The notes under the pieces are model-generated. The model was not told the DNA's origin and did no database searches. It was given only the letters and a program-made list of their open reading frames with translations. From the NCBI GenBank assembly GCA_944375955.1, contig CALWBE010000016.1, positions 9,405 through 73,404 of the forward strand: a stretch of 64,000 nt of DNA, written 5' to 3'. This DNA is from an uncultured Clostridia bacterium. Lineage in GTDB: Bacteria > Bacillota > Clostridia > Oscillospirales > CAG-382. Every line of letters starts with the position of its first letter. The first letter of the stretch is position 1. Position numbers and translations under genes: made by a program. This document shows, in pieces, positions 2 through 19,113 of the stretch.

Positions 2-445
2 TTCGCTGCGGCAGAAGCGGCTGATATTCAGAATGAAATTATTAATTATGCTGATATCCCTGAATTCTCAATTCTCGGTGCCGTACCTACCGCCGAAGGT
101 GCCGCAGCAGAAATACCAAAACTAACCGGAAAAACAGTATCCGGTTCGGTTATACTTGTAACCGGCTGCGGCCGTGTCGGAAAACAGCTTTCCATCCTTC
201 TAAAATCCATGAACGCCGACGTATACGTCTCTGCACGCAAAAACGCAGATATTTCATGGATAGACGCTAACGGTATGAAGCCCCTCAGGACTTCTTGCAT
301 ATCTGACTGCAATATCGCTTTTGACATCATATGCAATACCGTTCCCGCCCTGATATTTGACAAAAAGACGCTTGAAAACCTCAAGGGTAATCCATCGATA
401 CTTGAACTCGCTTCAAAGCCCTACGGGGCGGGTTTTAAATTTTGA
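2..445 (+). CDS. dpaA: dipicolinate synthase subunit A (DpaA/SpoVFA), 5'/central part; starts upstream of the window and is interrupted at about 416-439
   Basis: The frame from nt 2 is open: FAAAEAADIQ...IPEFSILGAVPTAEGAAAE...VILVTGCGRVGKQLSILLKS...YVSARK...ICNTVPALIF...ILELASKP, then YGAGFKF-stop. It matches the SpoVFA Rossmann core (IPTAEG, GxGRxG, INTIPA, DLASKPGG) but lacks the last ~50 aa. Confidence 0.85.
   Translation, partial: FAAAEAADIQNEIINYADIPEFSILGAVPTAEGAAAEIPKLTGKTVSGSVILVTGCGRVGKQLSILLKSMNADVYVSARKNADISWIDANGMKPLRTSCISDCNIAFDIICNTVPALIFDKKTLENLKGNPSILELASKPYGAGFKF
415..439 (+). repeat. left junction repeat inside dpaA (candidate attL core)
   Basis: AAG CCC TAC GGG GCG GGT TTT AAA (416-439) aligns codon-for-codon with AAA CCT GCG GGG GTG GAT TTT AAA (18958-18981), 17/24 identical. 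It has an internal dyad AAAGCCC-N8-GGGTTTT (415-436). Confidence 0.6.
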
Positions 446-2588: not shown

Positions 2589-2617
2589 ATTTTACACTTA
2601 AAAATCATTGTTGTCAA
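2589..2617 (-). promoter_or_regulatory. sigma-A type promoter for the T-box/symporter transcript
   Basis: Minus strand: TTGACA (2612-2617), 17-nt spacer, TAAAAT (2589-2594), about 15 nt upstream of T-box stem I. Confidence 0.55.
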
Positions 2618-2677
2618 GTACTTTTTTTATTTTATATATATTATTTTCTTTTTGAATTATAAAAAAATATTTTTTAC

Positions 2678-3586
2678 TTAATCTGAAAGCCTTAATTTTT
2701 TCATTCTTTTTTCAGCCTTTAAAAACAGTTCGCTTTCTACTAACGGCGCATGAGTTCCACAGACTTTATAATACTGCTCCGGACGGCATTTTCTCCGTTT
2801 ATCTGTTTTATAGTTTATTTTCGTTACAAAACCCTGAGTCAAATCTCCTTTATATGTGGGATTTGCAAGTATCCTCTTTATCATCACGGAATTCCATTTA
2901 TTGCTTTTTTGCCTATTGTCGCTTTTCATTCTCGACGGAGTCTTTATTCCGTCCGCAGTAAGTCCGCATGCTATGGCAAGCATGCTTTTTCCCGAAACAA
3001 ATTCAAGAAATATCCTTCGTACAACTCCCGCACAGCGTTCATCAGGTATCAAAAGATTTTTATCTTCTTCTGACTTTTTATATCCGTACGGTGCAGAGCT
3101 TCCTATAAATTTCCCTGCAGCTCTTTTGGAATCAAGCGCGGTCCTTACCTTTCTGCTTATATCCTTGGCATACAAGTCGTTAAATACAGCGCGGAACGGT
3201 ATCATGTCGTTTCCGTATCCGTCCCTCTCTGTATCTATCCCGTCATTTACCGCTATATACCTGATTCCGTTTACCGGAAAAAAACGCTCAATGTACTCTC
3301 CGGTTGCAATATAATCCCTGCCAAGTCTTGACATATCCTTTGTTAAAATAACTTTGAAATTTCCTTTTAATGCATCATTTACCATTCTCTTAAATTCCGG
3401 TCTTTCAAAATTCGTTCCAGTATACCCGTCGTCTATATATATTTCAGCTATCTCAAAGCCATATTTTCGGCAGTAATCTGTCAAAAACAACTTTTGCGAA
3501 AGAATGCTGTCAGATTCGCCGCCTGCTCCGTCGTCTCTTGAAAGGCGCAAATAAAGTGCGGCTTTATTTCCTTTCAATAAAAACAC
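2678..3586 (-). CDS. serine recombinase, large-serine-recombinase type (resolvase catalytic domain + recombinase domain) that ends before the zinc-ribbon/coiled-coil domain
   Basis: AALYLRLSRDDGAGGESDSILSQ contains the catalytic Ser motif of TnpX/TndX/SpoIVCA-like LSRs. DDGYTGTNFERPEFKRM, LTKDMSRLGRDY, IAVNDGIDT, SAPYGYKK and THAPLVESELF mark the recombinase domain. At 302 aa it is short of the ~450-550 aa typical for LSRs. The likely start is TTG at 3577 (GGGAGG SD 8 nt upstream) rather than GTG at 3586. Confidence 0.8.
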   Translation of the reverse strand: MFLLKGNKAALYLRLSRDDGAGGESDSILSQKLFLTDYCRKYGFEIAEIYIDDGYTGTNFERPEFKRMVNDALKGNFKVILTKDMSRLGRDYIATGEYIERFFPVNGIRYIAVNDGIDTERDGYGNDMIPFRAVFNDLYAKDISRKVRTALDSKRAAGKFIGSSAPYGYKKSEEDKNLLIPDERCAGVVRRIFLEFVSGKSMLAIACGLTADGIKTPSRMKSDNRQKSNKWNSVMIKRILANPTYKGDLTQGFVTKINYKTDKRRKCRPEQYYKVCGTHAPLVESELFLKAEKRMKKLRLSD

Positions 3587-3622
3587 CTCCCGAAAAAGCT
3601 CTTTATATACTTATTCGGGAGG
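3586..3622 (-). terminator. hairpin + T-run after proX; its 3' arm contains the recombinase SD
   Basis: Minus strand: CCTCCCGAA-19 nt-TTCGGGAGG followed by TGTTTTTATTG. The GGGAGG in the 3' arm is the only SD for the recombinase TTG/GTG start. Confidence 0.5.
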
Positions 3623-3653
3623 CTTATTTTTAATTCGCGAAAGTAAAACCTTA

Positions 3654-5000: not shown

Positions 5001-7709
5001 ATGTCAGCACAGTATGAAATCGTCGACAGCGTTGAAAAACTTGAACAGGCTATTGCGAAAGTTAGAAAAGCACAACAGATTTTCGCTACCTATACGCAGG
5101 AACAGGTAGACAAAATTTTTCTTGCCGCTGCGACAGCTGCAAACAAAGCGCGTATACCGCTTGCAAAATTTGCGGTAGAAGAAACAGGTATGGGAGTAGT
5201 TGAAGATAAGGTCATTAAAAATCATTATGCTTCCGAATATATTTACAACGCCTACAAAAACACTAAAACCTGTGGAGTAATCGAGGAAGACAAAGCATAT
5301 GGAATTAAGAAAATTGCAGAACCCGTCGGTGTTATCTGCGCTGTTATTCCGACTACCAATCCAACTTCCACTGCTATTTTTAAAACGCTTATATCGCTCA
5401 AGACACGCAACGGAATTATTATAAGTCCTCATCCGCGTGCAAAACAGTCTACTATTGCTGCTGCAAAGGTAGTCCTTGAAGCTGCAGTAGCTGCTGGAGC
5501 TCCCGATGGAATAATCAGCTGGATAGATATCCCCTCTCTCGAAATGACTAATCTTCTCATGAAAGAAGCAGATATAATTCTTGCAACAGGCGGACCCGGA
5601 ATGGTAAAAGCCGCTTATTCTAGCGGAAAGCCTGCTGTAGGTGTCGGAGCCGGAAATACTCCCGCTATAATCGACGATACGGCCGATATTCTGCTCGCTG
5701 TAAACTCTATCATACATTCAAAAACATTTGACAACGGTATGATATGCGCTTCCGAGCAGTCTGTTATCGTTCTTGAATCTATTTATGACGCCGTTAAAGA
5801 AGAATTCGCTTCACGCGGATGCTATTTCTTAAATCCCGAAGAAACAGAAAAAGTCCGCAAAACTATTATCATTAACGGCGCTCTCAATGCTAAAATAGTA
5901 GGTCAAAAGGCTGCCACCATTGCCAAACTTGCAGGAGTAACGGTTCCGGAAGGCACTAAAATAATTATCGGAGAAGTAGAAAGCGTCGATCTTTCTGAAG
6001 AATTTGCTCATGAAAAACTCTCCCCCGTTCTTGCAATGTATAAGGCAAAAGATATACACGATGCGTTCGAAAAAGCCGAAAGACTTATAGCGGACGGCGG
6101 TTATGGTCACACATCTTCTATTTATCTAAATGCAGTTACGGAAAAAGAAAAGCTTGATGAATTTGCATCTCGCATGAAAACCTGTCGTATACTTGTCAAT
6201 ACTCCCTCTTCCCAGGGCGGTATCGGAGATCTTTACAACTTTAAACTTGCGCCTTCACTTACCCTCGGATGCGGCTCTTGGGGCGGAAACAGTGTTTCTG
6301 AAAACGTTGGCGTAAAACATCTCATTAACATTAAAACCGTTGCCGAGAGGAGAGAAAATATGCTTTGGTTCCGTGCACCTGAAAAAATATATATCAAAAA
6401 AGGCTGTCTGCCGGTCGCCCTTGAGGAACTCAGATCGGTTATGGGCAAAAAACGTGCTTTTATCGTCACTGACAGCTTCCTTTATAAAAACGGATATACG
6501 AAACCTATTACTGATAAACTCGAAGAAATGGGCATCGCTTATACCACTTTCTCAGACGTCGCTCCAGATCCTACACTCGCTTGCGCTAAGGCCGGTGCCG
6601 AACTCATGAGATCCTTCGCTCCTGACTGCATTATTGCTATCGGAGGCGGTTCAGCTATGGATGCCGGAAAAATTATGTGGGTGCTTTATGAACATCCCGA
6701 AGCTGACTTCATGGATATGGCTATGCGCTTCGTTGATATCCGCAAGAGAATTTATACATTCCCGAAAATGGGTGAAAAAGCTTACTTTATCGCCATTCCT
6801 ACTTCAGCAGGTACCGGCTCTGAAGTTACTCCTTTTGCTGTTATAACAGATGAAAAATCCGGCGTTAAATATCCTCTCGCCGATTATGAGCTTCTTCCTA
6901 AAATGGCTATTATTGATGCCGACTTCCATATGACTGCTCCTAAAGGACTTACTGCAGCCTCCGGTATTGATGCTGTTACTCACGCGCTTGAAGCATATGC
7001 TTCTGTAATGGCGACGGATTATACCGATTCTCTCGCTCTGCGCGCTCTTAAAGTTATTTTCGAATATCTTCCTATTGCTTATGAAAACGGTCCCAACGAT
7101 CCTGTCGCTCGTGAAAAAATGGCGAATGCCGCTACTATGGCAGGTATGGCATTTGCTAATGCTTTCCTCGGTGTATGCCACTCGATGGCTCATAAGCTCG
7201 GTGCATTCCATCACCTGCCTCACGGTGTAGCAAATGCCTTAATGATCGATGAGGTACTGCGTTTCAATGCAGCTGAAACCCCTGTTAAAATGGGAACTTT
7301 CTCTCAGTATGATCATCCTCATACTCTCGCGCGCTATGCAGAAGTAGCCGACTATCTCGGAATTCCCGGAAAAACCGACAGTGAAAAACTTGAAAATCTT
7401 ATTGCAGCAATCGATGAACTGAAAGTTAAGGTTGGTATAAAACCGACAATAAAAGATTATGTCGCAGATGAAAAAGACTTCCTCGATCGTCTTGATGAAA
7501 TGACTGAACAGGCATTTGACGACCAATGCACCGGCGCAAATCCGCGTTATCCGCTTATGAGCGAAATAAAACAAATGTATCTTAATGCTTATTACGGCAA
7601 AAAATTTGTGGAACTTCCTACTCCGGATGAACGTCAACTTGAATCAAATGATGATGCGCATGATATCAAAAAGCCCTACCGCAAAGCAAAAAACGGCATG
7701 AAGAAATAA
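5001..7709 (+). CDS. adhE: bifunctional acetaldehyde-CoA/alcohol dehydrogenase AdhE
   Basis: 902 aa. It has an N-terminal ALDH domain (PTTNPTSTAIFK, MICASEQS) plus a C-terminal Fe-ADH domain (GGGSAMDAGK, HSMAHKLG). RBS GGAGG lies upstream. Confidence 0.95.
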   Translation: MSAQYEIVDSVEKLEQAIAKVRKAQQIFATYTQEQVDKIFLAAATAANKARIPLAKFAVEETGMGVVEDKVIKNHYASEYIYNAYKNTKTCGVIEEDKAYGIKKIAEPVGVICAVIPTTNPTSTAIFKTLISLKTRNGIIISPHPRAKQSTIAAAKVVLEAAVAAGAPDGIISWIDIPSLEMTNLLMKEADIILATGGPGMVKAAYSSGKPAVGVGAGNTPAIIDDTADILLAVNSIIHSKTFDNGMICASEQSVIVLESIYDAVKEEFASRGCYFLNPEETEKVRKTIIINGALNAKIVGQKAATIAKLAGVTVPEGTKIIIGEVESVDLSEEFAHEKLSPVLAMYKAKDIHDAFEKAERLIADGGYGHTSSIYLNAVTEKEKLDEFASRMKTCRILVNTPSSQGGIGDLYNFKLAPSLTLGCGSWGGNSVSENVGVKHLINIKTVAERRENMLWFRAPEKIYIKKGCLPVALEELRSVMGKKRAFIVTDSFLYKNGYTKPITDKLEEMGIAYTTFSDVAPDPTLACAKAGAELMRSFAPDCIIAIGGGSAMDAGKIMWVLYEHPEADFMDMAMRFVDIRKRIYTFPKMGEKAYFIAIPTSAGTGSEVTPFAVITDEKSGVKYPLADYELLPKMAIIDADFHMTAPKGLTAASGIDAVTHALEAYASVMATDYTDSLALRALKVIFEYLPIAYENGPNDPVAREKMANAATMAGMAFANAFLGVCHSMAHKLGAFHHLPHGVANALMIDEVLRFNAAETPVKMGTFSQYDHPHTLARYAEVADYLGIPGKTDSEKLENLIAAIDELKVKVGIKPTIKDYVADEKDFLDRLDEMTEQAFDDQCTGANPRYPLMSEIKQMYLNAYYGKKFVELPTPDERQLESNDDAHDIKKPYRKAKNGMKK

Positions 7710-7716
7710 GATATAA

Positions 7717-8481
7717 GTGAGGAGAACGAACATGAAACTTGACAGAGTTATTGCAGTTAGAAACAACAAAACCGTATACCGCGACGGCGATAAATGTATC
7801 AAAGTGTTTAACGAAGAATATTCAAAAGCTGACGTTCTCAACGAAGCTCTTAATCAGGCTCGTATTGAAGAGACCGGCTTGCTTATTCCGAGAATTCTTG
7901 AAGTTACCATGATAGACGGGAAATGGGCTATTGTATCTGATTATATTAAAGGAAAAACTCTTGCACAGATTATGCAGGAGGATCCTGATAACAAAAACAA
8001 ATATATTGAGCAGCTTGTTGATCTACAGATTTTGATGCATTCAAAAACCTGCCCGCTTCTTAACAAGCTGAAAGATAAAATGAACCGCAAGATAAGTCAG
8101 GCTGAACTTGACGCAACGACACGTTATGATCTTCATACGCGCCTTGAAGGAATGCCTAAACACAACAAAGTTTGTCATGGCGACTTTAACCCCTCAAATA
8201 TTATTGTCGACGAAAACGGCAAAATGTATATTATTGACTGGGCGCATGCGACTCAAGGTAATGCTTCCGCCGATGCTGCAAGAACTTACCTGCTCTTCTG
8301 GCTGGACGGCGACATTGAAAGCGCAAACACATATCTTGATCTTTTCTGCAAAAAGAGCGATACGGCAAAACAATATGTTCAGAAATGGATGCCTATTGTC
8401 GCTGCTTCTCAGTCTGTAAAAGGCAATCAAAAAGAGCGCGAGTTTCTGCTTTCATGGGTAGATGTCGTTGATTATGAATAA
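7717..8481 (+). CDS. APH/choline-kinase-fold phosphotransferase (protein-kinase-like)
   Basis: HGDFNPSNIIVDENGKMYIIDW carries the HxDxxxxN catalytic loop plus the IDW metal-binding motif of the aminoglycoside phosphotransferase/ChoK family. It starts 8 nt after adhE. Confidence 0.7.
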   Translation: MRRTNMKLDRVIAVRNNKTVYRDGDKCIKVFNEEYSKADVLNEALNQARIEETGLLIPRILEVTMIDGKWAIVSDYIKGKTLAQIMQEDPDNKNKYIEQLVDLQILMHSKTCPLLNKLKDKMNRKISQAELDATTRYDLHTRLEGMPKHNKVCHGDFNPSNIIVDENGKMYIIDWAHATQGNASADAARTYLLFWLDGDIESANTYLDLFCKKSDTAKQYVQKWMPIVAASQSVKGNQKEREFLLSWVDVVDYE

Positions 8482-8502
8482 TTATTTTCGGAGGATATAC
8501 AA

Positions 8503-8742
8503 ATGAAAGTTACCATTTGCATAGGAAGCTCATGCCACATAAAAGGTTCGCGTCAGGTCGTTGAGCAACTTCAGTATCTTATACGTCAAAAAAATGTTGA
8601 AGACAAAGTTGAACTCGGCGGAACTTTTTGTATGGGAAAATGTCAAATGGGTGTGTGTGTCGGAATCGATGACGAAGTTTTTTCAGTAACACCCGATACA
8701 GTTGATGATTTCTTTGAAAAACAAATTTTGACAAGGATATAA
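8503..8742 (+). CDS. thioredoxin-like [2Fe-2S] ferredoxin domain protein
   Basis: 79 aa with a Cys pattern C-x4-C...C-x3-C (ICIGSSCHIKG ... FCMGKCQ). Confidence 0.7.
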   Translation: MKVTICIGSSCHIKGSRQVVEQLQYLIRQKNVEDKVELGGTFCMGKCQMGVCVGIDDEVFSVTPDTVDDFFEKQILTRI

Positions 8743-8746
8743 GCTT

Positions 8747-9007
8747 ATGATAATTCAAATCTGCATCGGCAGTTCATGCCATCTTAAAGGCTCAGAAGAA
8801 GTTGTAGAGCTTTTTAAAAAGGCTATTGACAAATACAGTCTTAACGATGATATCACTCTTGCCGGCAGCTTTTGTTTTGGAAAATGCAATCGTACAGGTG
8901 TTACTGTAACGGTAGATGACGAGGTGTTTACCGGTATAACAAAAGAGAACTTTGAAGGCTTTTTTAAAGAAAAAGTTTTAGGAAAAATCAGTCGCGAAAA
9001 GGAGTGA
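8747..9007 (+). CDS. thioredoxin-like [2Fe-2S] ferredoxin domain protein (paralogue of the previous gene)
   Basis: 86 aa with the same pattern (ICIGSSCHLKG ... FCFGKCN). It is clearly similar to 8503-8742. Confidence 0.7.
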   Translation: MIIQICIGSSCHLKGSEEVVELFKKAIDKYSLNDDITLAGSFCFGKCNRTGVTVTVDDEVFTGITKENFEGFFKEKVLGKISREKE

Positions 9008-9013
9008 CCGTAA

Positions 9014-10690
9014 ATGCCTAATTGTCTTACGCTCAAAAAATCCAACTGTAAAAACTGCTATAAATGTATAAGGCACTGCCCCGTAAAATCAATAAGATTT
9101 TCAGGAAATCAGGCTCATATTATCGGTAACGAATGCATTCTTTGCGGACAATGCTTTGTAGTTTGTCCGCAAAACGCAAAAGAAATTGTAAATGAAACTG
9201 AAAAAGCAAAGGTTTTACTCGCTTCCGGAGATCCTGTAGTAGTCAGTCTCGCTCCGTCTTTTATTGCAAATTATGACGGTGTAGGAATAGAATCTATGCG
9301 TGACGCTCTGAAAAAACTCGGATTTTACGACGCTGAAGAGACCGCTGTCGGCGCCACAATGGTAAAAAGAGATTATGAAAGGCTTTTAAGAGAGGAAGGC
9401 AGAGATATTCTTATATCGTCATGCTGTCATTCCGTTAATCTTTTAATTCAAAAATATTTTCCACGCGAGCTTGCTTATCTTGCTGATACCGTTTCTCCTA
9501 TGCAGGCGCATTGTATAGACATAAAAAAGCGCATACCGGGCGCCAAAACAGTATTTATCGGTCCGTGTGTAGCTAAAAAAGACGAGGCAGAACATTATGA
9601 AGGCATTGTCGACGCAGTTTTGACATTTGAAGAGCTCACAGAATGGCTTGCCGAAGAAAATATAGAGCTTGAAAAGAAAATCACCCCTAAAGAAGAAAGC
9701 CTTGCAAGATTTTTCCCCACGTCAGGCGGAATTCTGAAAACAATGACTGAACGGCTTCCCGAATATACATATATGGTAGTTGACGGTGTTGAAAACTGTA
9801 TTGCTGCGCTCCGTGAGATAGAGCAGGGAAAAATACACAAATGCTTTATTGAAATGTCCGCGTGCGTTGGCAGCTGTATAGGTGGTCCGGTTATGGAAAA
9901 ATATCATCGCCATCCTGTCGAAGACTATATGGCAGTATCTAATTTCGCAGGCAAAAAAGATTTTGAAACCCCTCAGCCTGAAATTGCCGTTATGAAAAAA
10001 AGCTTTGAATATATAGAGCGTAAAAGTTCTATGCCAACCGAAACCGAAATTACTGAAATTCTCCGGCAAATGGGCAAGTTTACTCCTGCCCAGGAATTAA
10101 ACTGCGGTTCATGCGGATATGATACCTGCCGCGAAAAAGCTATCGCTATATATCAAGGGAAAGCCGAAATATCCATGTGTCTGCCTTTCCTTAAAGAAAA
10201 AGCTGAAAGCTTTTCTGATACTATAGTTAAAAATACTCCTAACGGACTTATTGTTTTAAATGACAAGCTTGAGGTTCAACAGATAAATTCTGCGGCATGC
10301 AAAATTATGAATATTAGATCGGCTTCAGATGTGCTTGGTGACCAGGTCATAAGAATCCTTGATCCTTCGGTTTTTGTAAAAGTTCTTGAAAGCGGTAGAG
10401 GCATATACGATGATCATGTTTATCTTGCAGAATATGGTAAATATATAGAGCAAACCGTAGTCTACGACAAAGAATCGCATATGCTTATATGCATAATGCG
10501 TGATATAACAAGTGAAGAAAACGAACGCGAAAAGAAAGAAAATATCAGCCGTCAAACAATTGAGGTAGCTGATAAAGTAGTTGACAAGCAAATGAGAATC
10601 GTACAGGAAATCGCTTCTTTGCTCGGTGAAACTGCCGCCGAAACCAAAATAGCGCTTTCTAAGCTTAAGGAGTCAATATCAAATGAATGA
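9014..10690 (+). CDS. hydS: putative sensory [FeFe]-hydrogenase (group C, HydS-like) with a C-terminal PAS domain
   Basis: It has 2x CxxCxxCxxxCP ferredoxin motifs. The H-cluster-like motifs are SSCCHS, GPCVAKKDE and MSACVGSCIGGP. An extra Cys motif CGSCGYDTC-x16-C (Cx2Cx4Cx16C) follows, then a PAS-like segment (TPNGLIVLNDKLEVQQINSAACKIM). Confidence 0.8.
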   Translation: MPNCLTLKKSNCKNCYKCIRHCPVKSIRFSGNQAHIIGNECILCGQCFVVCPQNAKEIVNETEKAKVLLASGDPVVVSLAPSFIANYDGVGIESMRDALKKLGFYDAEETAVGATMVKRDYERLLREEGRDILISSCCHSVNLLIQKYFPRELAYLADTVSPMQAHCIDIKKRIPGAKTVFIGPCVAKKDEAEHYEGIVDAVLTFEELTEWLAEENIELEKKITPKEESLARFFPTSGGILKTMTERLPEYTYMVVDGVENCIAALREIEQGKIHKCFIEMSACVGSCIGGPVMEKYHRHPVEDYMAVSNFAGKKDFETPQPEIAVMKKSFEYIERKSSMPTETEITEILRQMGKFTPAQELNCGSCGYDTCREKAIAIYQGKAEISMCLPFLKEKAESFSDTIVKNTPNGLIVLNDKLEVQQINSAACKIMNIRSASDVLGDQVIRILDPSVFVKVLESGRGIYDDHVYLAEYGKYIEQTVVYDKESHMLICIMRDITSEENEREKKENISRQTIEVADKVVDKQMRIVQEIASLLGETAAETKIALSKLKESISNE

Positions 10691-11855
10691 TTTATGTGCC
10701 GATATAGGATATAAAAGTGTAAATCACTTCGGCGAACAGCTTTGCGGCGATCATGTTGATATAATTGAACAGGAAGACGGTTCGGAAGTCATCGTTCTTG
10801 CCGACGGACTCGGCAGCGGCGTAAAAGCCAGTATACTTTCTACACTTACATCTAAAATTATCTCTACAATGATGGCATCCGGTCTTCCGCTTGAAGAATG
10901 TGTCTCAACAATCGCCGCAACACTGCCTGTATGTTCGGTGCGCGGAGTTGCTTATTCGACTTTTACTATCATAAACCTTATAAATAATGAAACCGCCGAG
11001 TTTATTCAATATGATAACCCACAGATAATTATGATCAGAAATGAAAAATTTACCGATTATCCGAAATCTGAAATAAATATCGACGGCAAAAAAATATATA
11101 AATCCGTAATAAAGCTCCAGGAAAATGATGTATTTGTCGCTATGAGCGACGGATGTCCTCATGCCGGGATAGGTACCGCATACAATTTTGGCTGGAAATA
11201 TGAAGATATTGCATCGTTTGTAGAAACTATTATTCCGGCAGGATACACGTCAAAAACGCTTTCAACCATACTTATTAACGAATGCACCAAACTTTATGAC
11301 GGCAAGCCGGGCGATGATGCTACAGCTTGTGTTATACGCATTAGAAAAAGAGTACCAATGAACCTGCTGTTCGGTCCGCCTTCAAACCGTGATGACTGCG
11401 GAAGAATGATGTCTCTGTTTTTCTCTAAAGAAGGCAAGCACATAATCTGCGGAGGTACAACTTCTTCAATAGCTGCCGACTATCTTAAAAAACCTCTCCG
11501 ACCAACTCTTAATTTTGAACGCTCTGATGTCCCTCCTATCGCTGAACTTGAGGGCGTTGACCTCGTTACTGAAGGAGTTATAACCGTAAACAAGGTTTTA
11601 GAATATGCCAAAGACTATATTCAGGATAACTCAGGTTATGAAAAATGGAGTTGTGGAAGAGATGGAGCTTCACTTATATGTCGGATGCTTTTTGAAGAAG
11701 CTACTGATATAAACTTCTTTGTAGGCAGAGCCGTTAACCCCGCCCATCAAAACCCGGATCTTCCCATAAATTTCAACATAAAAATGAATCTTGTAAAAGA
11801 ACTTTCCGAATGTCTGAAAAAAATGGGTAAAAAAATAAAGGTAAGCTATTTTTAA
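10683..11855 (+). CDS. PP2C/SpoIIE-family serine phosphatase
   Basis: LCGDHVDIIEQEDGSEVIVLADGLGSGVKASILS and AMSDGCPHAG are PP2C-type metal-binding motifs. It overlaps the hydS stop by 8 nt. Confidence 0.75.
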   Translation: MNDLCADIGYKSVNHFGEQLCGDHVDIIEQEDGSEVIVLADGLGSGVKASILSTLTSKIISTMMASGLPLEECVSTIAATLPVCSVRGVAYSTFTIINLINNETAEFIQYDNPQIIMIRNEKFTDYPKSEINIDGKKIYKSVIKLQENDVFVAMSDGCPHAGIGTAYNFGWKYEDIASFVETIIPAGYTSKTLSTILINECTKLYDGKPGDDATACVIRIRKRVPMNLLFGPPSNRDDCGRMMSLFFSKEGKHIICGGTTSSIAADYLKKPLRPTLNFERSDVPPIAELEGVDLVTEGVITVNKVLEYAKDYIQDNSGYEKWSCGRDGASLICRMLFEEATDINFFVGRAVNPAHQNPDLPINFNIKMNLVKELSECLKKMGKKIKVSYF

Positions 11856-11867
11856 GGAGTATAATAA

Positions 11868-13292
11868 ATGAGAAAATTTGATACCAAGGTACAGTATCTT
11901 AAATATAAGGTTCTGCGTGAAGTTGCAAGGCAAGCCTGGAACGACACTCTTCTCGACAATGTTCTTGAAATTCCTAAAAAGATAGTTCCGGGAAAAACGC
12001 CGACTATGCGTTGCTGCGTCTATAAAGAACGTGCAATACTTTCGGAACGAGTACATCTTGCCATGGGCGGAAATAAAGAAAATCCGAATGTTATTGAGGT
12101 AATAGAAATCGCCTGCGATGAATGTCCGGCTGCCGGATATTCTGTTACCGATTCATGCAGAGGCTGTCTTGCTCATAGGTGTGAAGATGTCTGCAAGCGC
12201 GGAGCAATATCGTTTGATCACAACCATGTTGCTCATATCGATAAAACAAAGTGCGTCGAATGCGGTATGTGTGCTAAAGTTTGTCCTTATACCGCCATTA
12301 TAAATCGCAAACGTCCTTGTCAGAATGCATGCAAAATACACGCAATTTCTATCAATGAAGAAAACGCAGCTACAATAGACAATGAAAAGTGCACTTCATG
12401 CGGTGCATGCGTTTATCAATGTCCTTTCGGTGCTATCAGCGATAAATCTTACATCTTGAATGTTATAGATATGCTGAAAAAAAGCTGTGAAGGTAAAAAT
12501 TATAAGATGTATGCAATAGTCGCTCCATCTATTTCAAGCCAGTTCAATTATGCAAAACTCGGTCAGGTAATAACCGGTCTTAAAAAGCTTGGATTCTTTA
12601 CCGTGGTTGAAGCTGCTCTCGGAGCAGATATGGTCGCGCAAGCCGAATCAAAAGAACTTTATGAAAAAGGTTTTCTGACAAGTTCTTGTTGCCCTGCTTT
12701 TGTATCTTATATTAAATCGAATTTTCCTGCTCTTGTTCAATATATTTCTCATAATCTTTCTCCTATGGCTACTATCGCAAAATATATAAAGGAAACAGAC
12801 AAAACTGCAAAAACTGTATTTATTGGTCCTTGTACGGCAAAAAAAGCTGAAATCCAGCTTGATACCGTAAAACCATATATAGATTCGGTAATGACATTTG
12901 AGGAACTTCAGGCTCTTTTTGACAGCCGCGACATAGACATAACTACTCTTGAAGAAAGTATCCTTGACAACGCGTCATATTTCGGAAGAATATTCGCCAG
13001 AAGCGGAGGGCTTTCTGATGCCGTGGCACAAGGTCTTATCGAACAAGGACTTACAGATTTTAAATTAAAGGCATGCGCCTGCGACGGAATAGAAGCCTGC
13101 CGCACCGCTTTACTCAAAAAAAGCAAAAATGTGCTTGACGCAAACTTTATTGAAGGCATGGCATGTGTAGGAGGCTGCATAGGAGGCGCCGGATGTCTGA
13201 CTCACGGCGAAAAAAACAAAGATGAGGTAGACAAATACGGAAAAGAAGCTTATGAAAAAACAATAACAGAAGCTATTTCAGTTCTTAAATAG
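11868..13292 (+). CDS. [FeFe]-hydrogenase, monomeric group-B-like catalytic subunit
   Basis: It has ferredoxin Cys clusters and the H-cluster motifs TSSCCPAF, FIGPCTAKKAE and GMACVGGCIGGAGC. The N-terminus MRKFDTKVQYLKYKVLREV is typical of the B-type family. Confidence 0.85.
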   Translation: MRKFDTKVQYLKYKVLREVARQAWNDTLLDNVLEIPKKIVPGKTPTMRCCVYKERAILSERVHLAMGGNKENPNVIEVIEIACDECPAAGYSVTDSCRGCLAHRCEDVCKRGAISFDHNHVAHIDKTKCVECGMCAKVCPYTAIINRKRPCQNACKIHAISINEENAATIDNEKCTSCGACVYQCPFGAISDKSYILNVIDMLKKSCEGKNYKMYAIVAPSISSQFNYAKLGQVITGLKKLGFFTVVEAALGADMVAQAESKELYEKGFLTSSCCPAFVSYIKSNFPALVQYISHNLSPMATIAKYIKETDKTAKTVFIGPCTAKKAEIQLDTVKPYIDSVMTFEELQALFDSRDIDITTLEESILDNASYFGRIFARSGGLSDAVAQGLIEQGLTDFKLKACACDGIEACRTALLKKSKNVLDANFIEGMACVGGCIGGAGCLTHGEKNKDEVDKYGKEAYEKTITEAISVLK

Positions 13293-13490
13293 TAATCTCC
13301 AAGTTTATTTTCTAAAACCAATGCTTCAAATATTATGGTTTATTTGATTTAAAATATAAAATCCGTGTATACTTTAAAAGCATACACGCATTTATTTTAT
13401 TGAAAAAACAGCATTTAATTTATATTGACTTTTTAAAATATAAAGAATAAAATATATCCGACAGAAATATTTTCGGAGGTTAACTAAGTT

Positions 13491-14777
13491 ATGGTTTATT
13501 CTAAGAATCTGACAGAAAAATATAATGTAGATATATTTGTTGCCGGAGGCGGAGCTGCAGGTGTGGCAGCTGCCATTGCCGCATCTAAGCAAGGTAAATC
13601 TGTATTTCTTGCCGAGGCAACAGGAGCGTTTGGCGGACTTGGAACCTCAGGCTTGGTTCCGTCTTTTGCGCCGTTCGGAGACGGAATTAATATGCTTGCT
13701 TCCGGTATAGGTCTTGATATAAGAAAAAAAGTTTCCAAAGCTTTTCCTATCGATATCTACTGGGCTCCCATAAACGCCGAAGAACTGAAACGTGTATACG
13801 ATGATGAAATGATTTCTGCAGGTGTTGAATTCTCTTTTTTCACGACAGTATGTGATGTCGTGGTATCAGACGGTCATATTGACTATGTAGTATGCACTGC
13901 AAAATCCGGCATGTTTGCGGTGAAGGCTAAAATTTACATAGACTGCACCGGAGACGGAGATCTTTGTTATCTCGGCGGAGGGGACTACACTGTCGGAGAG
14001 GGTGACGGAAAAGTCATGCCCGGAACTTTATGCAGTCTTTGGGCTAATATCGACTGGTCAAATGTAAGCGGACCTCAAAATGCTTTTATTGAAAAGGCAT
14101 ACTCAGATGGTGTGCTTTCATATGAAGATCGTCATCTTCCCGGCATGTTTAAAAGAGATGATCTTCTCGGAGGCGGAAATATAGGTCATCTTTTCAATAT
14201 TGATCCAACTGACGAAAAATCTCTTACCAACTCTATGATATGGGGCAGAAAGTCGATGCTCGAATACGAGCGCTATTACAAAAAATATCTTAAAGGTTTT
14301 GAAAATATGATATTATGCGCTACCGGTTCTGTGCCCGGTGTCAGAGAATCAAGACGTATCACTTGCGACTATGCTCTTTGTGTTGATGATTTTATCAGCC
14401 GTGCCGTTTTTGAAGATGAAATAGGCAGATATTGCTATCCGGTAGATATACACGTTATGAATACTGATAAAAAGGAATATGAGAGATTTAGCAATGAGTA
14501 TGAAAATTTAAGATATAAGCAGGGTGAATCGTATGGTATACCATACAGAAGTCTTATATCAAAATCGTTTTCCAATCTGCTTACCGCCGGTAGATGCATG
14601 GGTACTGACAGAAAAATGCAGGCTTCAATACGCGTAATGCCGGGATGCTTTATTACAGGTCAGGCAGCAGGAGCTGCCGCTGCTCTCGCATCAAACTGCG
14701 GTGACGTCCGAAAAATCAACCATTCTTTGTTAGTTTCAGAGCTTAAAAAATTAGGTGCTTTTCTACCTAATGCATAG
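13491..14777 (+). CDS. FAD-dependent oxidoreductase
   Basis: N-terminal dinucleotide fold DIFVAGGGAAGVAAAIAASKQGKSVFLAE. 428 aa. Confidence 0.7.
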   Translation: MVYSKNLTEKYNVDIFVAGGGAAGVAAAIAASKQGKSVFLAEATGAFGGLGTSGLVPSFAPFGDGINMLASGIGLDIRKKVSKAFPIDIYWAPINAEELKRVYDDEMISAGVEFSFFTTVCDVVVSDGHIDYVVCTAKSGMFAVKAKIYIDCTGDGDLCYLGGGDYTVGEGDGKVMPGTLCSLWANIDWSNVSGPQNAFIEKAYSDGVLSYEDRHLPGMFKRDDLLGGGNIGHLFNIDPTDEKSLTNSMIWGRKSMLEYERYYKKYLKGFENMILCATGSVPGVRESRRITCDYALCVDDFISRAVFEDEIGRYCYPVDIHVMNTDKKEYERFSNEYENLRYKQGESYGIPYRSLISKSFSNLLTAGRCMGTDRKMQASIRVMPGCFITGQAAGAAAALASNCGDVRKINHSLLVSELKKLGAFLPNA

Positions 14778-14813
14778 AATTAAAAATTAGGTGCTTATTC
14801 TACCTATTGCATA
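14743..14813 (+). repeat. tandem ~35-bp duplication of the 3' end of the FAD oxidoreductase gene
   Basis: TTAAAAAATTAGGTGCTTTTCTACCTAATGCATA (14743-14776) is followed by TTAAAAATTAGGTGCTTATTCTACCTATTGCATA (14780-13). Confidence 0.8.
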
Positions 14814-15123
14814 AAATTTAAAACCAAGCAATACAATATTGAACTTTTTTGAGTTCCTTTTCGACGTTTTGTTCTCAATAGAAATCATTGAATGTTTAAA
14901 TGAATAGCCCAATAATTATATTTAATTTGGAAAGGTGATGATATAATAAGAGCAAAAGTAATTGGTATCTTACTCATATTGTGGACATTCTTGGTATTCT
15001 GATGGAACTAATAATGTTTGAGAATATTGGTATTGCTTGCATATTGGAGGCATAAAGGGGTTTGCTGTCTGGCATTGGCTTTGTGTCTTATACATCGAAA
15101 TAAATAATAAAGGAGAAATTAAA

Positions 15124-16041
15124 ATGAAAAGAACATTATCAGTTATCCTGGCAATTATTTTAGCTATGTCATTGTTAGCGTGCAGTAGTTATTCTGATGA
15201 AGACATTAAGGAGCCATCTAATGTTGCTACTGGCAGCAACGCTGGAGAAGGACAGAAGCAAGAGCAAGTAGAGGAAACAGAGGTACCTGAGGAAACAGAA
15301 GTAACTATTAATGAGACCGTTCTTGTTGATGAGGCTGGCATAAAAGTTACTGCTAAAAGCCTTGAAGTTGACGGGATTTTTGGTCCCGAAATCAAACTGC
15401 TTATTGAGAATAATTCTGGTAAAGACCTAACTTTCCAATGTCGCAATGCTTCCGTTAATGGCTACATGGTTGAAACCATGATGTCTGTTGATGTTGTGAA
15501 TGGTAAGAAAGCAAATGATAGTTTAACTTTTATGAAATCCGATTTTGAGGCGTGTGGGATTGAAAAAATTGCTGATATGGAAATTGCATTCCATATTTTT
15601 GATATGGCTGAATGGGAAACTTATTTGGATACTGCCTCAATCCAGATCAAGACTTCTATCGCTGATAACTTTGAGTACACCTATGATGATAGCGGAGATT
15701 TGGCCTATGAAGGAAATGGTATAAAGATTATAATCAAGGGACTTGCAGAAAATGAATCCATATTTGGTCCCAGCATCGTGACTTATATTGAAAACACTGG
15801 AGATAAGGATATAACTGTCCAAACAAGAGATGTATCCATTAATGGATTTATGGCGTCTGCCATATTCTCCTGCGATGTACTTGCAGGCAAACGTGCCGTG
15901 GATACTATTACTTTCATGGAGTCTGACCTTGAGGAAAATGAAATTACTGCGATTGAGGATATAGAACTGTCATTCCATATTTTTGACTCTGATGACTGGA
16001 AAACTATTGTTGATACAGAAATCGTAAAAATTAGCTTCTGA
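15124..16041 (+). CDS. lipoprotein with two tandem copies of an uncharacterised ~110-aa domain
   Basis: AAAGGAG RBS lies before ATG 15124. The signal peptide MKRTLSVILAIILAMSLLA-CSS has a lipobox. An acidic linker is followed by repeat A (15319-15651) and repeat B (15697-16038), which are mutually alignable. Confidence 0.7.
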   Translation: MKRTLSVILAIILAMSLLACSSYSDEDIKEPSNVATGSNAGEGQKQEQVEETEVPEETEVTINETVLVDEAGIKVTAKSLEVDGIFGPEIKLLIENNSGKDLTFQCRNASVNGYMVETMMSVDVVNGKKANDSLTFMKSDFEACGIEKIADMEIAFHIFDMAEWETYLDTASIQIKTSIADNFEYTYDDSGDLAYEGNGIKIIIKGLAENESIFGPSIVTYIENTGDKDITVQTRDVSINGFMASAIFSCDVLAGKRAVDTITFMESDLEENEITAIEDIELSFHIFDSDDWKTIVDTEIVKISF

Positions 16042-16241: not shown

Positions 16242-17528
16242 TTATTTTTTAGGAATTATTTTTTCAGCTCCTCCCATATACGGGCGAAGAGCAACAGGAA
16301 TATTTACGCTTCCGTCTTCATTAAGGTTATTTTCAAGAAATGCTATAAGCATTCTTGGAGGTGCAACAACTGTATTGTTGAGTGTATGAGCAAGATATTT
16401 TGAATTCTTTCCGCTTACACGGATCTTTAATCTTCTTGCCTGCGCATCTCCGAGATTCGAGCAGCTTCCGACCTCAAAATATTTCTTTTGTCTCGGCGAC
16501 CATGCCTCAACATCAAGTGATTTTACTTTAAGATCGGCAAGATCTCCCGAACAGCATTCAAGCGTTCTTACAGGAATATCCATAGAGCGGAAAAGGTCGA
16601 CTGTATTGCGCCACAATTTTTCAAACCACATCGGACTTTCCTCGGGTTTGCATACTACAATCATTTCCTGCTTTTCAAACTGGTGTATGCGGTAAACTCC
16701 GCGCTCTTCTATGCCGTGCGCTCCCTTCTCCTTACGGAAACACGGCGAATAGCTTGTCAGCGTCTGCGGAAGCTGTTCCTCCGGAATTATCTGATCAATA
16801 AACTTTCCTATCATAGAATGCTCTGAAGTACCTATAAGATAAAGGTCTTCTCCTTCTATCTTATACATCATAGCTTCCATTTCGGCAAAACTCATAACTC
16901 CGGTAACAACATCCGAACGAATCATAAACGGAGGTACACAATAGGTAAAACCGCGGTTTATCATAAAATCACGCGCATATGAAATAACTGCCGAATGCAG
17001 TCTTGCTATATCGCCCATAAGATAATAAAACCCGTTGCCGGCAACACGGCGCGCACTGTCAAGATCTATACCGTCAAAGCGTTCCATTATATCAGTATGA
17101 TACGGAATTTCAAAATCGGGCACAACCGGGTCCCCGAACTTCTCTATCTCTACATTCTCGCTGTCGTCTTTTCCTATCGGCACTGACGGATCTATTATCT
17201 GAGGTATTACCATCATTATTTTCTTGATTTTTTCTTCGTATTCCGACTCAAGCGCTTCGCATTCCGCAAGACGCGCCGCCTGCTCGTTAACTTTTTTCTT
17301 CATTTCTTCGGCTTCTTCTTTTTTACCCTGCCCCATAAGCGCGCCGATCATCTTTGAGCATTTGTTACGGTCTGCCCTGAGTCCGTCGGCTTCAAGCTTT
17401 ACAGCACGGGATTTCGCATCAAGCTCAATAACTTCATCTACCAAAGGCAGCTTTGAGTCCTGAAACTTATTTCTGATATTTTGTTTTACAGCGTCCGGAT
17501 TTTCACGCAAAAATTTAATGTCTATCAT
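16242..17528 (-). CDS. serS: seryl-tRNA synthetase
   Basis: 428 aa. MIDIKFLRENPD..., an N-terminal coiled-coil arm and a class II core (TSEHSMIG, FRKEKGAHG, GSCSNLGDAQARR). Confidence 0.95.
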   Translation of the reverse strand: MIDIKFLRENPDAVKQNIRNKFQDSKLPLVDEVIELDAKSRAVKLEADGLRADRNKCSKMIGALMGQGKKEEAEEMKKKVNEQAARLAECEALESEYEEKIKKIMMVIPQIIDPSVPIGKDDSENVEIEKFGDPVVPDFEIPYHTDIMERFDGIDLDSARRVAGNGFYYLMGDIARLHSAVISYARDFMINRGFTYCVPPFMIRSDVVTGVMSFAEMEAMMYKIEGEDLYLIGTSEHSMIGKFIDQIIPEEQLPQTLTSYSPCFRKEKGAHGIEERGVYRIHQFEKQEMIVVCKPEESPMWFEKLWRNTVDLFRSMDIPVRTLECCSGDLADLKVKSLDVEAWSPRQKKYFEVGSCSNLGDAQARRLKIRVSGKNSKYLAHTLNNTVVAPPRMLIAFLENNLNEDGSVNIPVALRPYMGGAEKIIPKK

Positions 17529-17956: not shown

Positions 17957-18901
17957 TTAGTCCTTTATATACTCCCTTTTTGTCAGACAAAGTTCTGTTA
18001 TAAATCTTCTGTCAAGCTCAGTAAGCTTATAATCATTTCGGTATATAAGCACGTCCTTATATATTTTTTTATTATCCGGAAAGCTCCTTTGTTCCAGTCC
18101 ATATTTATTAAGTACTTTCTCAGGCACCGGTGATACCCACATAAATGCGTCTTTATTATGCGACAGTATCTCAAGTTCGCTCGCCCGTTCAAAAACATAT
18201 ATTCGGCGTATTATATCATCCGGAAGTTCTTCCTTCTTTACCTGAGCCATTGAAAGCGAAGGAACATATGGGTCTCCGTGTGCAATCTCTATATATGGCC
18301 TCAAATCTGAATATCTGATCTCATCCTTTCCTGCTAAAGGGTTTTCTTTATTTATAAGCAAAACATATTGAAATTCTGTAACAAGCTCATAATACAACCC
18401 CTTTTCTTCAAGCATTTCCTTAAAATATCCTTCATGTTTTTCTGCATATCTTATTATACCTAATTTATAATCCATCTGAAGTATATTGTTTAGTGTCCTT
18501 GACGAATTTGTTTCCTTATACATGAGTTCTGCCGGTTCAGCGCTCAATGAAGTCGAAAATCTTGCGAATGCCTCGGAAATATAACAAGCCCGCGGCACTG
18601 AAATCGAAAATCTTTGCTTCAGCGGTCTACCAGCTTTATACATGTTTTCAACATCATCTATCTGACTTAATATCTTTTTTGCATATCCTATAAATTCTTC
18701 ACCTTGAGGAGTTAAAACCATTCCTTTTGCCGATCTGTCAAATATTGTTATTCCAAGATCGCTTTCCAGTTCTTTTATGGAGCGGCTGAGGTTCGGCTGA
18801 GCAATAAGAAGCGTTTCGGAAGCTTTGTTTATTGAGCCGACTCTTGCTACCTCTACGGCATATTTCATATGAAGTATATTCAAAATTTTTCTGCCTTTCA
18901 T
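17957..18901 (-). CDS. LysR-family transcriptional regulator
   Basis: N-terminal wHTH LHMKYAVEVARVGSINKASETLLIAQPNLSRSIKELE plus a substrate-binding domain. An alternative TTG start at 18883 would give the canonical LysR N-terminus. Confidence 0.8.
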   Translation of the reverse strand: MKGRKILNILHMKYAVEVARVGSINKASETLLIAQPNLSRSIKELESDLGITIFDRSAKGMVLTPQGEEFIGYAKKILSQIDDVENMYKAGRPLKQRFSISVPRACYISEAFARFSTSLSAEPAELMYKETNSSRTLNNILQMDYKLGIIRYAEKHEGYFKEMLEEKGLYYELVTEFQYVLLINKENPLAGKDEIRYSDLRPYIEIAHGDPYVPSLSMAQVKKEELPDDIIRRIYVFERASELEILSHNKDAFMWVSPVPEKVLNKYGLEQRSFPDNKKIYKDVLIYRNDYKLTELDRRFITELCLTKREYIKD

Positions 18902-18956
18902 GTTTATTGAAACAAGTATATCATATTATAATTTTTTTTTCAATACCGCAGCATTT

Positions 18957-18981
18957 AAAACCTGCGGGGGTGGATTTTAAA
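18957..18981 (+). repeat. right junction repeat (candidate attR core)
   Basis: AAA CCT GCG GGG GTG GAT TTT AAA is the partner of 416-439. It has the dyad AAAACC-N9-GGATTTT (18957-18978). Confidence 0.6.
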
Positions 18982-19113
18982 ACCGCTGAAAAGCTTTCGA
19001 TTAAAACACATATCGCTTCCGGTCTGCCAGGCAAAATTGCTCCTTACAGTGCCGGCAAAATTATGTACACATGTATAAATAATATTCTCTCAGAAAGGGG
19101 GTTCACTGTATGA
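18958..19113 (+). CDS. dpaA: dipicolinate synthase subunit A, 3' fragment (last ~50 codons) with no start codon of its own
   Basis: KPAGVDFKTAEKLSIKTHIASGLPGKIAPYSAGKIMYTCINNILSERGFTV matches the SpoVFA C-terminus (KPGGTDFxYAEKxGIKALLAPGLPGIVAPKTAGxI). Its stop overlaps the dpaB ATG (ATGA). The upstream part of ORF 18832-19113 has no DpaA similarity. Confidence 0.8.
   Translation, partial: KPAGVDFKTAEKLSIKTHIASGLPGKIAPYSAGKIMYTCINNILSERGFTV

Follow-up and report, generated by a model that had tools for sequence, protein, structure and literature searches.

The stretch studied here (termed the window in the following) comprises 64,000 nt of contig CALWBE010000016.1 (positions 9,405 to 73,404, forward strand) from an uncultured Clostridia bacterium (Oscillospirales; CAG-382; NCBI GenBank assembly GCA_944375955.1). 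The assembly spans 2.18 Mb and is labelled G000 below. At the left end of the window, the sporulation gene dpaA is divided by an insert of 18.5 kb that encodes a short serine recombinase. This recombinase, its predicted recombination sites and the hairpin upstream of its gene are the subject of our analysis. The two dpaA pieces, which were located by a six-frame search with the TIGR02853 model, are co-oriented. Between them lie, in this order, a T-box-controlled SSF symporter, the recombinase, a ProX/YbaK-type editing protein (proX), a small membrane protein, adhE, a kinase-like gene, a block of HydS, PP2C and [FeFe]-hydrogenase, an FAD oxidoreductase, an unknown gene, serS and a LysR regulator. 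As stated in the first-pass annotation, i.e., an earlier reading of this DNA from its letters alone, no second recombinase was found in the insert. Respective coordinates are provided in Table 1.

Table 1. Features of the divided dpaA locus (window positions; HMM, hidden Markov model; RD, recombinase domain; SD, Shine-Dalgarno sequence).
Feature	Position	Strand	Description
dpaA 5' part	2..427	plus	TIGR02853 HMM positions 3-253, match ends near 445; followed by 5 element-encoded codons and a stop at 443-445
attL	412..439	plus	TTCAAAGCCCTAC-GG-GGCGGGTTTTAAA; centre GG at 425-426 within the Gly codon of ...ASKPYG
Spacer and promoter of the T-box/symporter unit	2589..2677	minus	60-nt AT-rich spacer, then sigma-70-type TTGACA-17-TAAAAT at 2617-2589
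Recombinase gene	2678..3577	minus	299 aa; resolvase catalytic domain, alpha-E helix, RD; ends at the RD/zinc-ribbon boundary
Hairpin upstream of the recombinase	3585..3623	minus	terminator-like stem followed by a T-run; SD GGGAGG (3591-3586) in the 3' arm
Candidate mother-cell-type promoter	3607..3636	minus	GAATTAA at 3636-3630, 14-nt spacer formed by the hairpin 5' arm, AATAAGTAT at 3615-3607 in the loop
attR	18954..18981	plus	TTTAAAACCTGCG-GG-GGTGGATTTTAAA; centre GG at 18967-18968 opens the dpaA 3' piece
dpaA 3' part	18967..19113	plus	48 codons without start codon; stop overlaps the dpaB start (ATGA); HMM positions 242-287 at 18958-19095

The recombinase gene most likely starts with the TTG at 3577, which is located 8 nt past the GGGAGG and results in 299 aa, while an alternative GTG at 3586 would yield 302 aa. 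Both lengths agree with the earlier estimate of 299-302 aa. The stop codon is found at 2678-2680. A Pfam search assigns residues 9-159 to Resolvase (PF00239; E 2.4e-22) and, behind helix alpha-E, residues 186-297 to Recombinase (PF07508; E 4.3e-20); the zinc-ribbon domain of large serine recombinases (LSRs), i.e., PF13408 (Zn_ribbon_recom), is absent from the 299-aa protein. Residues 23-291 align with residues 35-295 of the 545-aa SPbeta integrase SprA, for which solved structures are available, and the N-terminal domain is closest to the catalytic domain of TnpX (E 2.5e-31). We also computed an AlphaFold (AF2) model from a 26-sequence alignment (mean predicted local distance difference test score 82.6). 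It consists of the catalytic domain, a long alpha-E helix (129-153), an alpha/beta domain and a final helix (282-298), and its best fold matches are the SPbeta, Bxb1 and phiC31 integrases, including 4BQQ, a laboratory fragment made of the N-terminal domain (NTD) and the RD. Based on the SprA alignment, the AF2 model and the fold matches, the protein terminates at the expected start of the linker to the zinc-ribbon domain. This is the position at which the first-pass annotation had placed the end of the protein relative to the missing zinc-ribbon/coiled-coil part.

That annotation had also seen no displaced 3' coding remnant, which holds as well: since only 60 nt separate the stop codon from the next promoter, there is no space for a remnant of the zinc-ribbon domain, and a TTGACA...TAAAAT promoter is likewise found behind the recombinase stop in orthologous loci. 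A six-frame search for PF13408 in the whole assembly gave 11 matches, none of them within the insert. An 82-aa zinc-ribbon frame (G000 C16:93482-93730; positions 1474-1722 of locus L006) was considered as the missing half and rejected, i.e., it is a separate LSR fragment that is located 80 kb off. This frame covers only the zinc ribbon and the start of the coiled coil and is cut by the contig end, about 20 kb past the window end. It sits beside holin-like and tail-fibre-like genes and is a fragment of another LSR or of a prophage.

To place the short form among its relatives, 5,204 database entries were compared and a tree was built from the about 300 residues common to short and long proteins. 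Labels starting with P refer to database proteins or clusters, whose contexts were looked up on metagenome contigs. The best about 26 clusters among the 5,204 relatives are 294-306 aa long, show 55-73% identity to the query and are all without PF13408. The next-best relatives have 490-528 aa, contain PF13408 and reach an identity of at most 55%. The short proteins form one clade (support of 99 in the Shimodaira-Hasegawa-like approximate likelihood ratio test, SH-aLRT; 100 on a reduced set), and all 26 members stop within a few residues past the last RD helix. Invariant among the 26 are Y9, R11, the nucleophile S13, R84 and R87 along with about 75 further positions. Wherever the synonymous rate (dS) can be estimated, the pairwise ratio of non-synonymous to synonymous substitution (dN/dS) is 0.05-0.18; for instance, dN is 0.107 and dS 0.909 for the genomes G006 and G007.

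These data decide on a trivial explanation that was also among the earlier suggestions, namely that the short reading frame is an artefact of a frameshift, a misassembly or a recent nonsense mutation in an LSR of about 500 aa. Sporadic short near-copies of long entries do exist, e.g., P0035 (306 aa) vs. P0034 (490 aa), and the isolated short entries elsewhere in the tree are of this kind. In the clade, however, the same end point recurs in over 26 clusters that have diverged and that stem from independent assemblies, the 60 nt behind the stop lead to a promoter that is itself conserved, and no frame of the insert carries a PF13408 signal. This refutes a frameshift or assembly problem, and the probability that we assign to an artefact is practically negligible. 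That is, as judged from sequence conservation, the short form is a lineage under purifying selection that descends from LSRs and has lost the zinc ribbon and the coiled coil, whereas the catalytic domain, the alpha-E helix and the RD were retained.

With regard to its distribution, we surveyed the order in an even sample of 401 genomes from 178 genera. Within this sample the short form is confined to the window's own genus, and other matches are located in reading frames of at least 410 aa. A search for related loci with the near genomes left out yielded, among the matches listed, only full-length LSRs with at most 53% identity.

A second short clade (P0077, P0113, P0116; 283-286 aa; 57% identity to the query) divides dpaA at the identical codon, and its chromosomal surroundings differ (CinA, ThiI, DnaX). 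As cargo, its elements carry bacA, in part accompanied by a SleB-like hydrolase. Forcing both short clades together costs 7 log-likelihood units with p = 0.26 in the approximately unbiased test, such that a single origin is neither shown nor rejected by the tree.

Next to G000, the short gene is present in six further genomes of the genus (G001, G003 and G005-G008 denote genus genomes with the short gene or the element, G009 an intact-dpaA relative). In 5/6 of them, the recombinase is located between the dpaA pieces and antisense to dpaA; the 5' piece extends to HMM position ~252, and the 3' piece begins at ~241. The 5' piece of G008 is on a different contig, and the 3' piece of G007 was below the search cut-off and was recovered by reading the junction. 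Three genus genomes and three family genomes have dpaA intact beside dpaB and no short recombinase. The split layout was furthermore seen in 10/11 metagenome places (nine proteins), and the contig of P0004 is without any dpaA piece. The elements differ strongly in size. The one of G003 (~3 kb) holds the symporter and the recombinase only; others of 4-6 kb add proX, the membrane protein and serS, with a glycoside hydrolase at one locus; and P0010, the deepest branch, has the recombinase directly at attL together with an FAD oxidoreductase. The recombinase is thus the sole gene common to all elements, and no small accessory gene is conserved.

An identical dpaA junction is observed in 14 loci. 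All interrupted genes share ...ELASKPYG and differ from there on, and the 3' pieces start with G(V/L)D.... Joining both pieces at the central GG results in AAG CCC TAC GGG GTG GAT TTT AAA, i.e., KPYG|VDFK in frame. The predicted junction sequences are ...AAGCCCTACGGGGTGGATTTTAAA... for attB and ...TTTAAAACCTGCGGGGCGGGTTTTAAA... for attP. The latter, i.e., the reciprocal product, is a 28-bp near-palindrome in which 11/13 arm positions are identical in G000. For nine loci, the element-side arms agree at 95/117 positions within +/-13 bp of the centre, compared to 25/117 (chance level) at positions 14-26. The motif TTyAAAryC is found in all four half-sites at positions 5-13 from the centre. Furthermore, the arms co-vary: TGCAAAACC is found on both element arms of G001 and G003 and TTTGAAA on both of G008, while the second clade has TTCGACATC or TTnnACATC, which tracks its dpaA codons (VDVE there, not VDFK). 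A degenerate pattern of the full site has exactly two occurrences in the assembly, namely attL and attR.

No extra half-sites were found near either end, so neither res-type accessory sites nor an enhancer is seen. Zinc-ribbon motifs are absent from the sites, and they do not have the ~40-50 bp of LSR-type att sites with distal, differently placed motifs. In the structure of the LI integrase bound to attP, the RD covers positions 1-12, the zinc-ribbon motif lies at 16-24 and the C-terminal region takes 25 bp per half-site (PMC3783163). Because the symmetry of the dpaA sites ends at +/-13 bp and the LI RD covers 1-12, the site extent fits RD-only binding, i.e., the sites are as expected for a protein predicted to bind via its RD only.

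The second clade differs from this arrangement at attL. Here, the recombinase reading frame runs over the site and its stop codon sits in the dpaA-side arm (L123 ~6830-6860, L125 ~6840-6870), such that the final codons (..STPAP*, ..TSAP*) come from the P' arm, the crossover and the dpaA-side arm. Since the frame spans the site, excision would alter the C-terminus of the protein.

We place the recombinase outside the LSR family in the strict sense, given that both the zinc-ribbon/coiled-coil domain and long att sites are absent. Neither is it a small serine recombinase (resolvase/invertase): it has 299 aa and not ~180-200, and its C-terminal half is PF07508 with no HTH_7 domain. Scores for curated NCBIfam models are all below the respective cut-off, e.g., 90.9 bits vs. 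900 for CcrB and 44.7 vs. 375 for XisF (NF041201).

Does the insert still excise? The dpaA 3' piece has exactly 48 open codons and a stop that overlaps dpaB in 10/10 interrupted genomes. It is as conserved as in intact relatives, where the respective part has 48 codons in 2/3 genomes and 53 in G009. G000 encodes a sigE-like factor (343.6 bits), a second sporulation-type sigma factor and an intact SpoIVA (689 bits). Because a tail without start codon stays open in ten genomes and because selection acts on the recombinase as well as on both sites, excision very probably continues.

The opposite view is that the element no longer excises and dpaA is permanently split, with the recombinase kept for another role, or with spores that are free of dipicolinate or not formed at all. 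Points in its favour are that some clostridia produce dipicolinate by an alternative EtfA route, that excision is deduced from sequence comparison and that the element holds the sole serS of the genome; loss of the element would therefore be lethal and immobility safe. Against this stand the purifying selection on the recombinase with its invariant catalytic residues, the dyad symmetry that is maintained and co-varies at both ends over long divergence, the conserved and dpaB-coupled 48-codon tail in 10 genomes, and the intact sporulation genes. The decayed, immobilised remnant with a permanently broken dpaA, which was one of the earlier suggestions, is contradicted by these observations, and we regard a permanent split as quite improbable.

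In the hairpin upstream of the recombinase, the stem consists of 10 bp (G3623-A3614 with T3594-T3585) and encloses a loop of 19 nt; TGTTTTTATT comes next. The energy amounts to -21.2 kcal/mol (z = -4.9), and 0/200 shuffled sequences were equally stable. The SD thus lies in the 3' arm of a terminator-like hairpin as described before. An equivalent structure with the SD in its 3' arm and a T-run behind is present at 10/10 loci with a co-directional upstream gene (z from -3.6 to -7.8), where the stems themselves differ (CCTCCCGAA..., CCTCTCTTTTGCC..., CTCCCGAATATAC..., GCCTCCGTT...). It is missing at 3/3 first-clade loci with attR directly upstream. Because it is present with a co-directional upstream gene and absent where attR is upstream, the hairpin looks like an insulator that would stop transcription coming from upstream and mask the SD of transcripts that escape.

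No promoter had been evident to the first-pass annotation between proX and the recombinase. This holds for the sigma-70 type, of which none was found in this interval, but not for a conserved mother-cell-like motif in the hairpin, which is a candidate promoter. The geometry GAATyAA-N14-(C/A)ATAAGTAT is kept in G000, G006, G007 and G008, and P0007 and P0016 show close variants of it. The -10-like part, i.e., (C/A)ATAAGTAT or AATATACT, is placed in the loop or the inner stem. Loci without hairpin read GCATATT-N14-CATACCGT, GAATATT-N14-CATAATGA, GCATAGA-N13-CATATATA, CATAACAT and TGATATT-N13-CATACCAT, and TAATATA-N14-CATAAAAAT is found upstream of spoIVA in G000. Mother-cell promoters of Clostridioides difficile have a CATA-type -10 with ATA (sigmaE) or AC (sigmaK) at -35 (PMC3789822).

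Taken together, we consider it probable that the recombinase is an autonomous compact excisase of the dpaA insert which is held off by a terminator hairpin that also occludes the SD, and which is turned on in the mother cell. A recombinase dimer would bind each 28-bp site by its RD alone, attL and attR would synapse, and strands would be exchanged at the central GG. The insert would leave as a circle, and dpaA would be rejoined in frame upstream of dpaB. Without the coiled coil, the auto-inhibition between attL and attR would not arise and a directionality factor would be unneeded. The LI integrase without its coiled coil is promiscuous and shows similar activity on attP with attB (PxB) and on attL with attR (LxR), from which its authors derive that the four sites owe their identities to the coiled coil (PMC5499577). 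Given the missing coiled coil and four equivalent half-sites, excision is therefore expected without a directionality factor.

Control would be by expression only. The hairpin would terminate read-through from upstream and conceal the SD, while a sigmaE/sigmaK-like promoter inside the hairpin would start the mRNA past the 5' arm. That is, a transcript begun 6-9 nt after the -10-like element would have its 5' end in the loop and would thus be without the 5' arm and leave the SD free, such that the recombinase would be produced in the mother cell only.

Several points weigh against an autonomous, mother-cell-specific excisase. No attB or attP junction was observed, i.e., our case for excision comes from sequence comparison. 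All clade members stem from assemblies of uncultured Oscillospiraceae/Ruminococcaceae and carry the name hypothetical protein. With regard to the promoter, the -10-like element of G000 is AATA and not CATA, and the -35-like element is without the ATA core. A strict sigmaE-like pattern ([GT][AC]AT..[AT]-N13/14-[CA]ATA...T; genome background of 0.14 per kb) matched 5/15 recombinase upstream regions, in 4/15 at the proposed position; since it fits there in only these 4, the nested mother-cell promoter is offered as a hypothesis. Concerning the enzyme, the LI integrase without coiled coil yielded only small amounts of product (PMC5499577), and truncation or zinc removal weakens DNA binding and dimerisation in canonical LSRs (PMC3152356, PMC5499577). 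The autonomy of an RD-only enzyme is thus not a given.

The last point leads to another reading, i.e., that the short recombinase is catalytically competent but depends on a partner outside the element. This could be a DNA-bending or sporulation protein of the host, or a full-length LSR of another element, which would provide functions for synapsis or directionality in trans. XisF of Anabaena, for instance, requires XisH and XisI. G000 does have further LSR genes on C58, C51 and C39, and the zinc ribbon and coiled coil aid affinity, dimerisation and synapsis in the LSRs studied (PMC3783163, PMC5499577, PMC3152356). However, the other LSRs vary between genomes, the sites show no conserved sequence past +/-13 bp and no added half-sites nearby, and no gene besides the recombinase is common to the elements: the minimal ones add only the symporter (G003), the FAD oxidoreductase (P0010) or bacA (second clade). 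A compact recombinase with a partner encoded elsewhere was among the earlier suggestions. Its first half, the compact working form, is favoured here; the partner is not needed by the data and none is conserved in the elements, and we consider its existence unlikely.

Beyond the single locus, we tentatively extend the autonomous excisase to a natural class, an extension to which we give slightly less than an even chance. Its members would be autonomous serine recombinases of ~300 aa with RD-only binding, 28-bp sites with four equivalent half-sites, no directionality factor and silencing by a terminator hairpin with a nested promoter, such that translation would be possible only for transcripts begun inside the hairpin. 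The ancestral element may have been little beyond the recombinase and two sites, with cargo captured later, including the only serS, by which the element would have become indispensable.

Some observations on the cargo and the flanks stand beside this. The adhE/kinase/HydS/PP2C/hydrogenase/FAD-oxidoreductase block (window 5001-16041, ~11 kb) and lysR are found in G000 only. The block sits between the membrane-protein gene and serS, and these two are adjacent in G005-G008, P0007 and P0016. The element-borne serS (window 16242-17528) is the only serS of G000, as it is in G005-G008, and is divergent (~404 bits on TIGR00414). G001 and G009, i.e., genomes with an element without serS or with no element, have a different serS (~570 bits) elsewhere. 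The element-borne gene thus seems, from these scores and positions, to have displaced the native one, and the element would therefore be indispensable. We infer that the element is old and mostly vertically inherited. At its other end, a strong sigma-70-type promoter directed into the element lies immediately beside attR (window 18885-18950, minus; also in G006-G008 and P0016), with TTGAAA-17-TATACT before lysR in G000 and TTGCAA-17-TATAAT before a short open reading frame or leader and serS in G006-G008. Upstream of dpaA and outside the window (G000 C16 ~9040-9060), CATACTATA fits the sigmaK-type -10 CATAnnnTA; dpaA belongs to the sigmaK regulon of C. difficile (PMC3789822).

The zinc-ribbon/coiled-coil part is treated as essential in every LSR studied, i.e., for affinity, for the distinction between attP, attB, attL and attR, and for the contact with the directionality factor. 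If our reading of an autonomous excisase is true, the catalytic core and the RD would be a sufficient recombination machine whose direction is set purely by the timing of enzyme production. A 0.9-kb gene with 28-bp sites and factor-free excision would then also be attractive for genome engineering. Furthermore, dpaA would join the sporulation genes that are rebuilt by programmed DNA excision, in this case with an intervening element that was fixed through the capture of an essential gene.

A literature search, with subscription journals outside its scope, returned no element that interrupts dpaA and no natural LSR without zinc ribbon. Likewise, neither the main texts of the element papers searched nor the abstracts returned mention dpaA among the targets.

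Among known systems, the skin element with SpoIVCA, which splits sigK in Bacillus subtilis, and skinCd of C. difficile with CD1231 and the recombination directionality factor CD1234 (PMC5025042) provide the closest parallel in layout. In each, an insert with its own serine recombinase (Resolvase and Recombinase domains) divides a mother-cell sporulation gene whose co-oriented halves rejoin in frame, as predicted for dpaA. In contrast, the skin and skinCd recombinases have ~500 aa with zinc ribbon and coiled coil, while the dpaA recombinase is without that domain and has 28-bp sites. The target differs as well, and the dpaA cargo consists of housekeeping genes instead of prophage remnants. The C. 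difficile and SPbeta systems need a directionality factor, for which the dpaA element has no candidate. The gin element in gerE of Bacillus cereus ATCC 10987 (PMC5595907) shares the non-prophage nature and the sporulation-linked excision by a serine recombinase (predicted for dpaA). However, its GirC is a full-length protein of 58 kDa that needs the 6.5-kDa GirX in vitro, compared to 34 kDa and no accessory gene for dpaA. Like the dpaA insert, vfbin in spoVFB (dpaB) of Bacillus weihenstephanensis KBAB4 interrupts the mother-cell dipicolinate synthase operon but hits the other subunit gene, is prophage-like and is found in Bacilli (cited in PMC4191935).

More generally, the dpaA element resembles the SPbeta/SprA-SprB, skin, gin and XisF systems in its predicted mode of action, but its recombinase is without a defining LSR domain, its sites have half the length, a directionality-factor candidate is absent and the target is dpaA. 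XisF of the Anabaena heterocyst fdxN element, a protein of 465 aa, is comparable in its task, i.e., a serine recombinase frees a gene of its insert in a cell that is terminally differentiated, while the score of the dpaA recombinase on NF041201 (see above) sets the two proteins apart. In domain content, the same or a close composition is found in the LI (A118-type) integrase without coiled coil, where the loss erases the distinction between att sites (PMC5499577), and in the phiC31 NTD+RD fragment 4BQQ. Those proteins are engineered and weakly active, whereas the dpaA recombinase is a natural, selected lineage with sites that are shortened to match.

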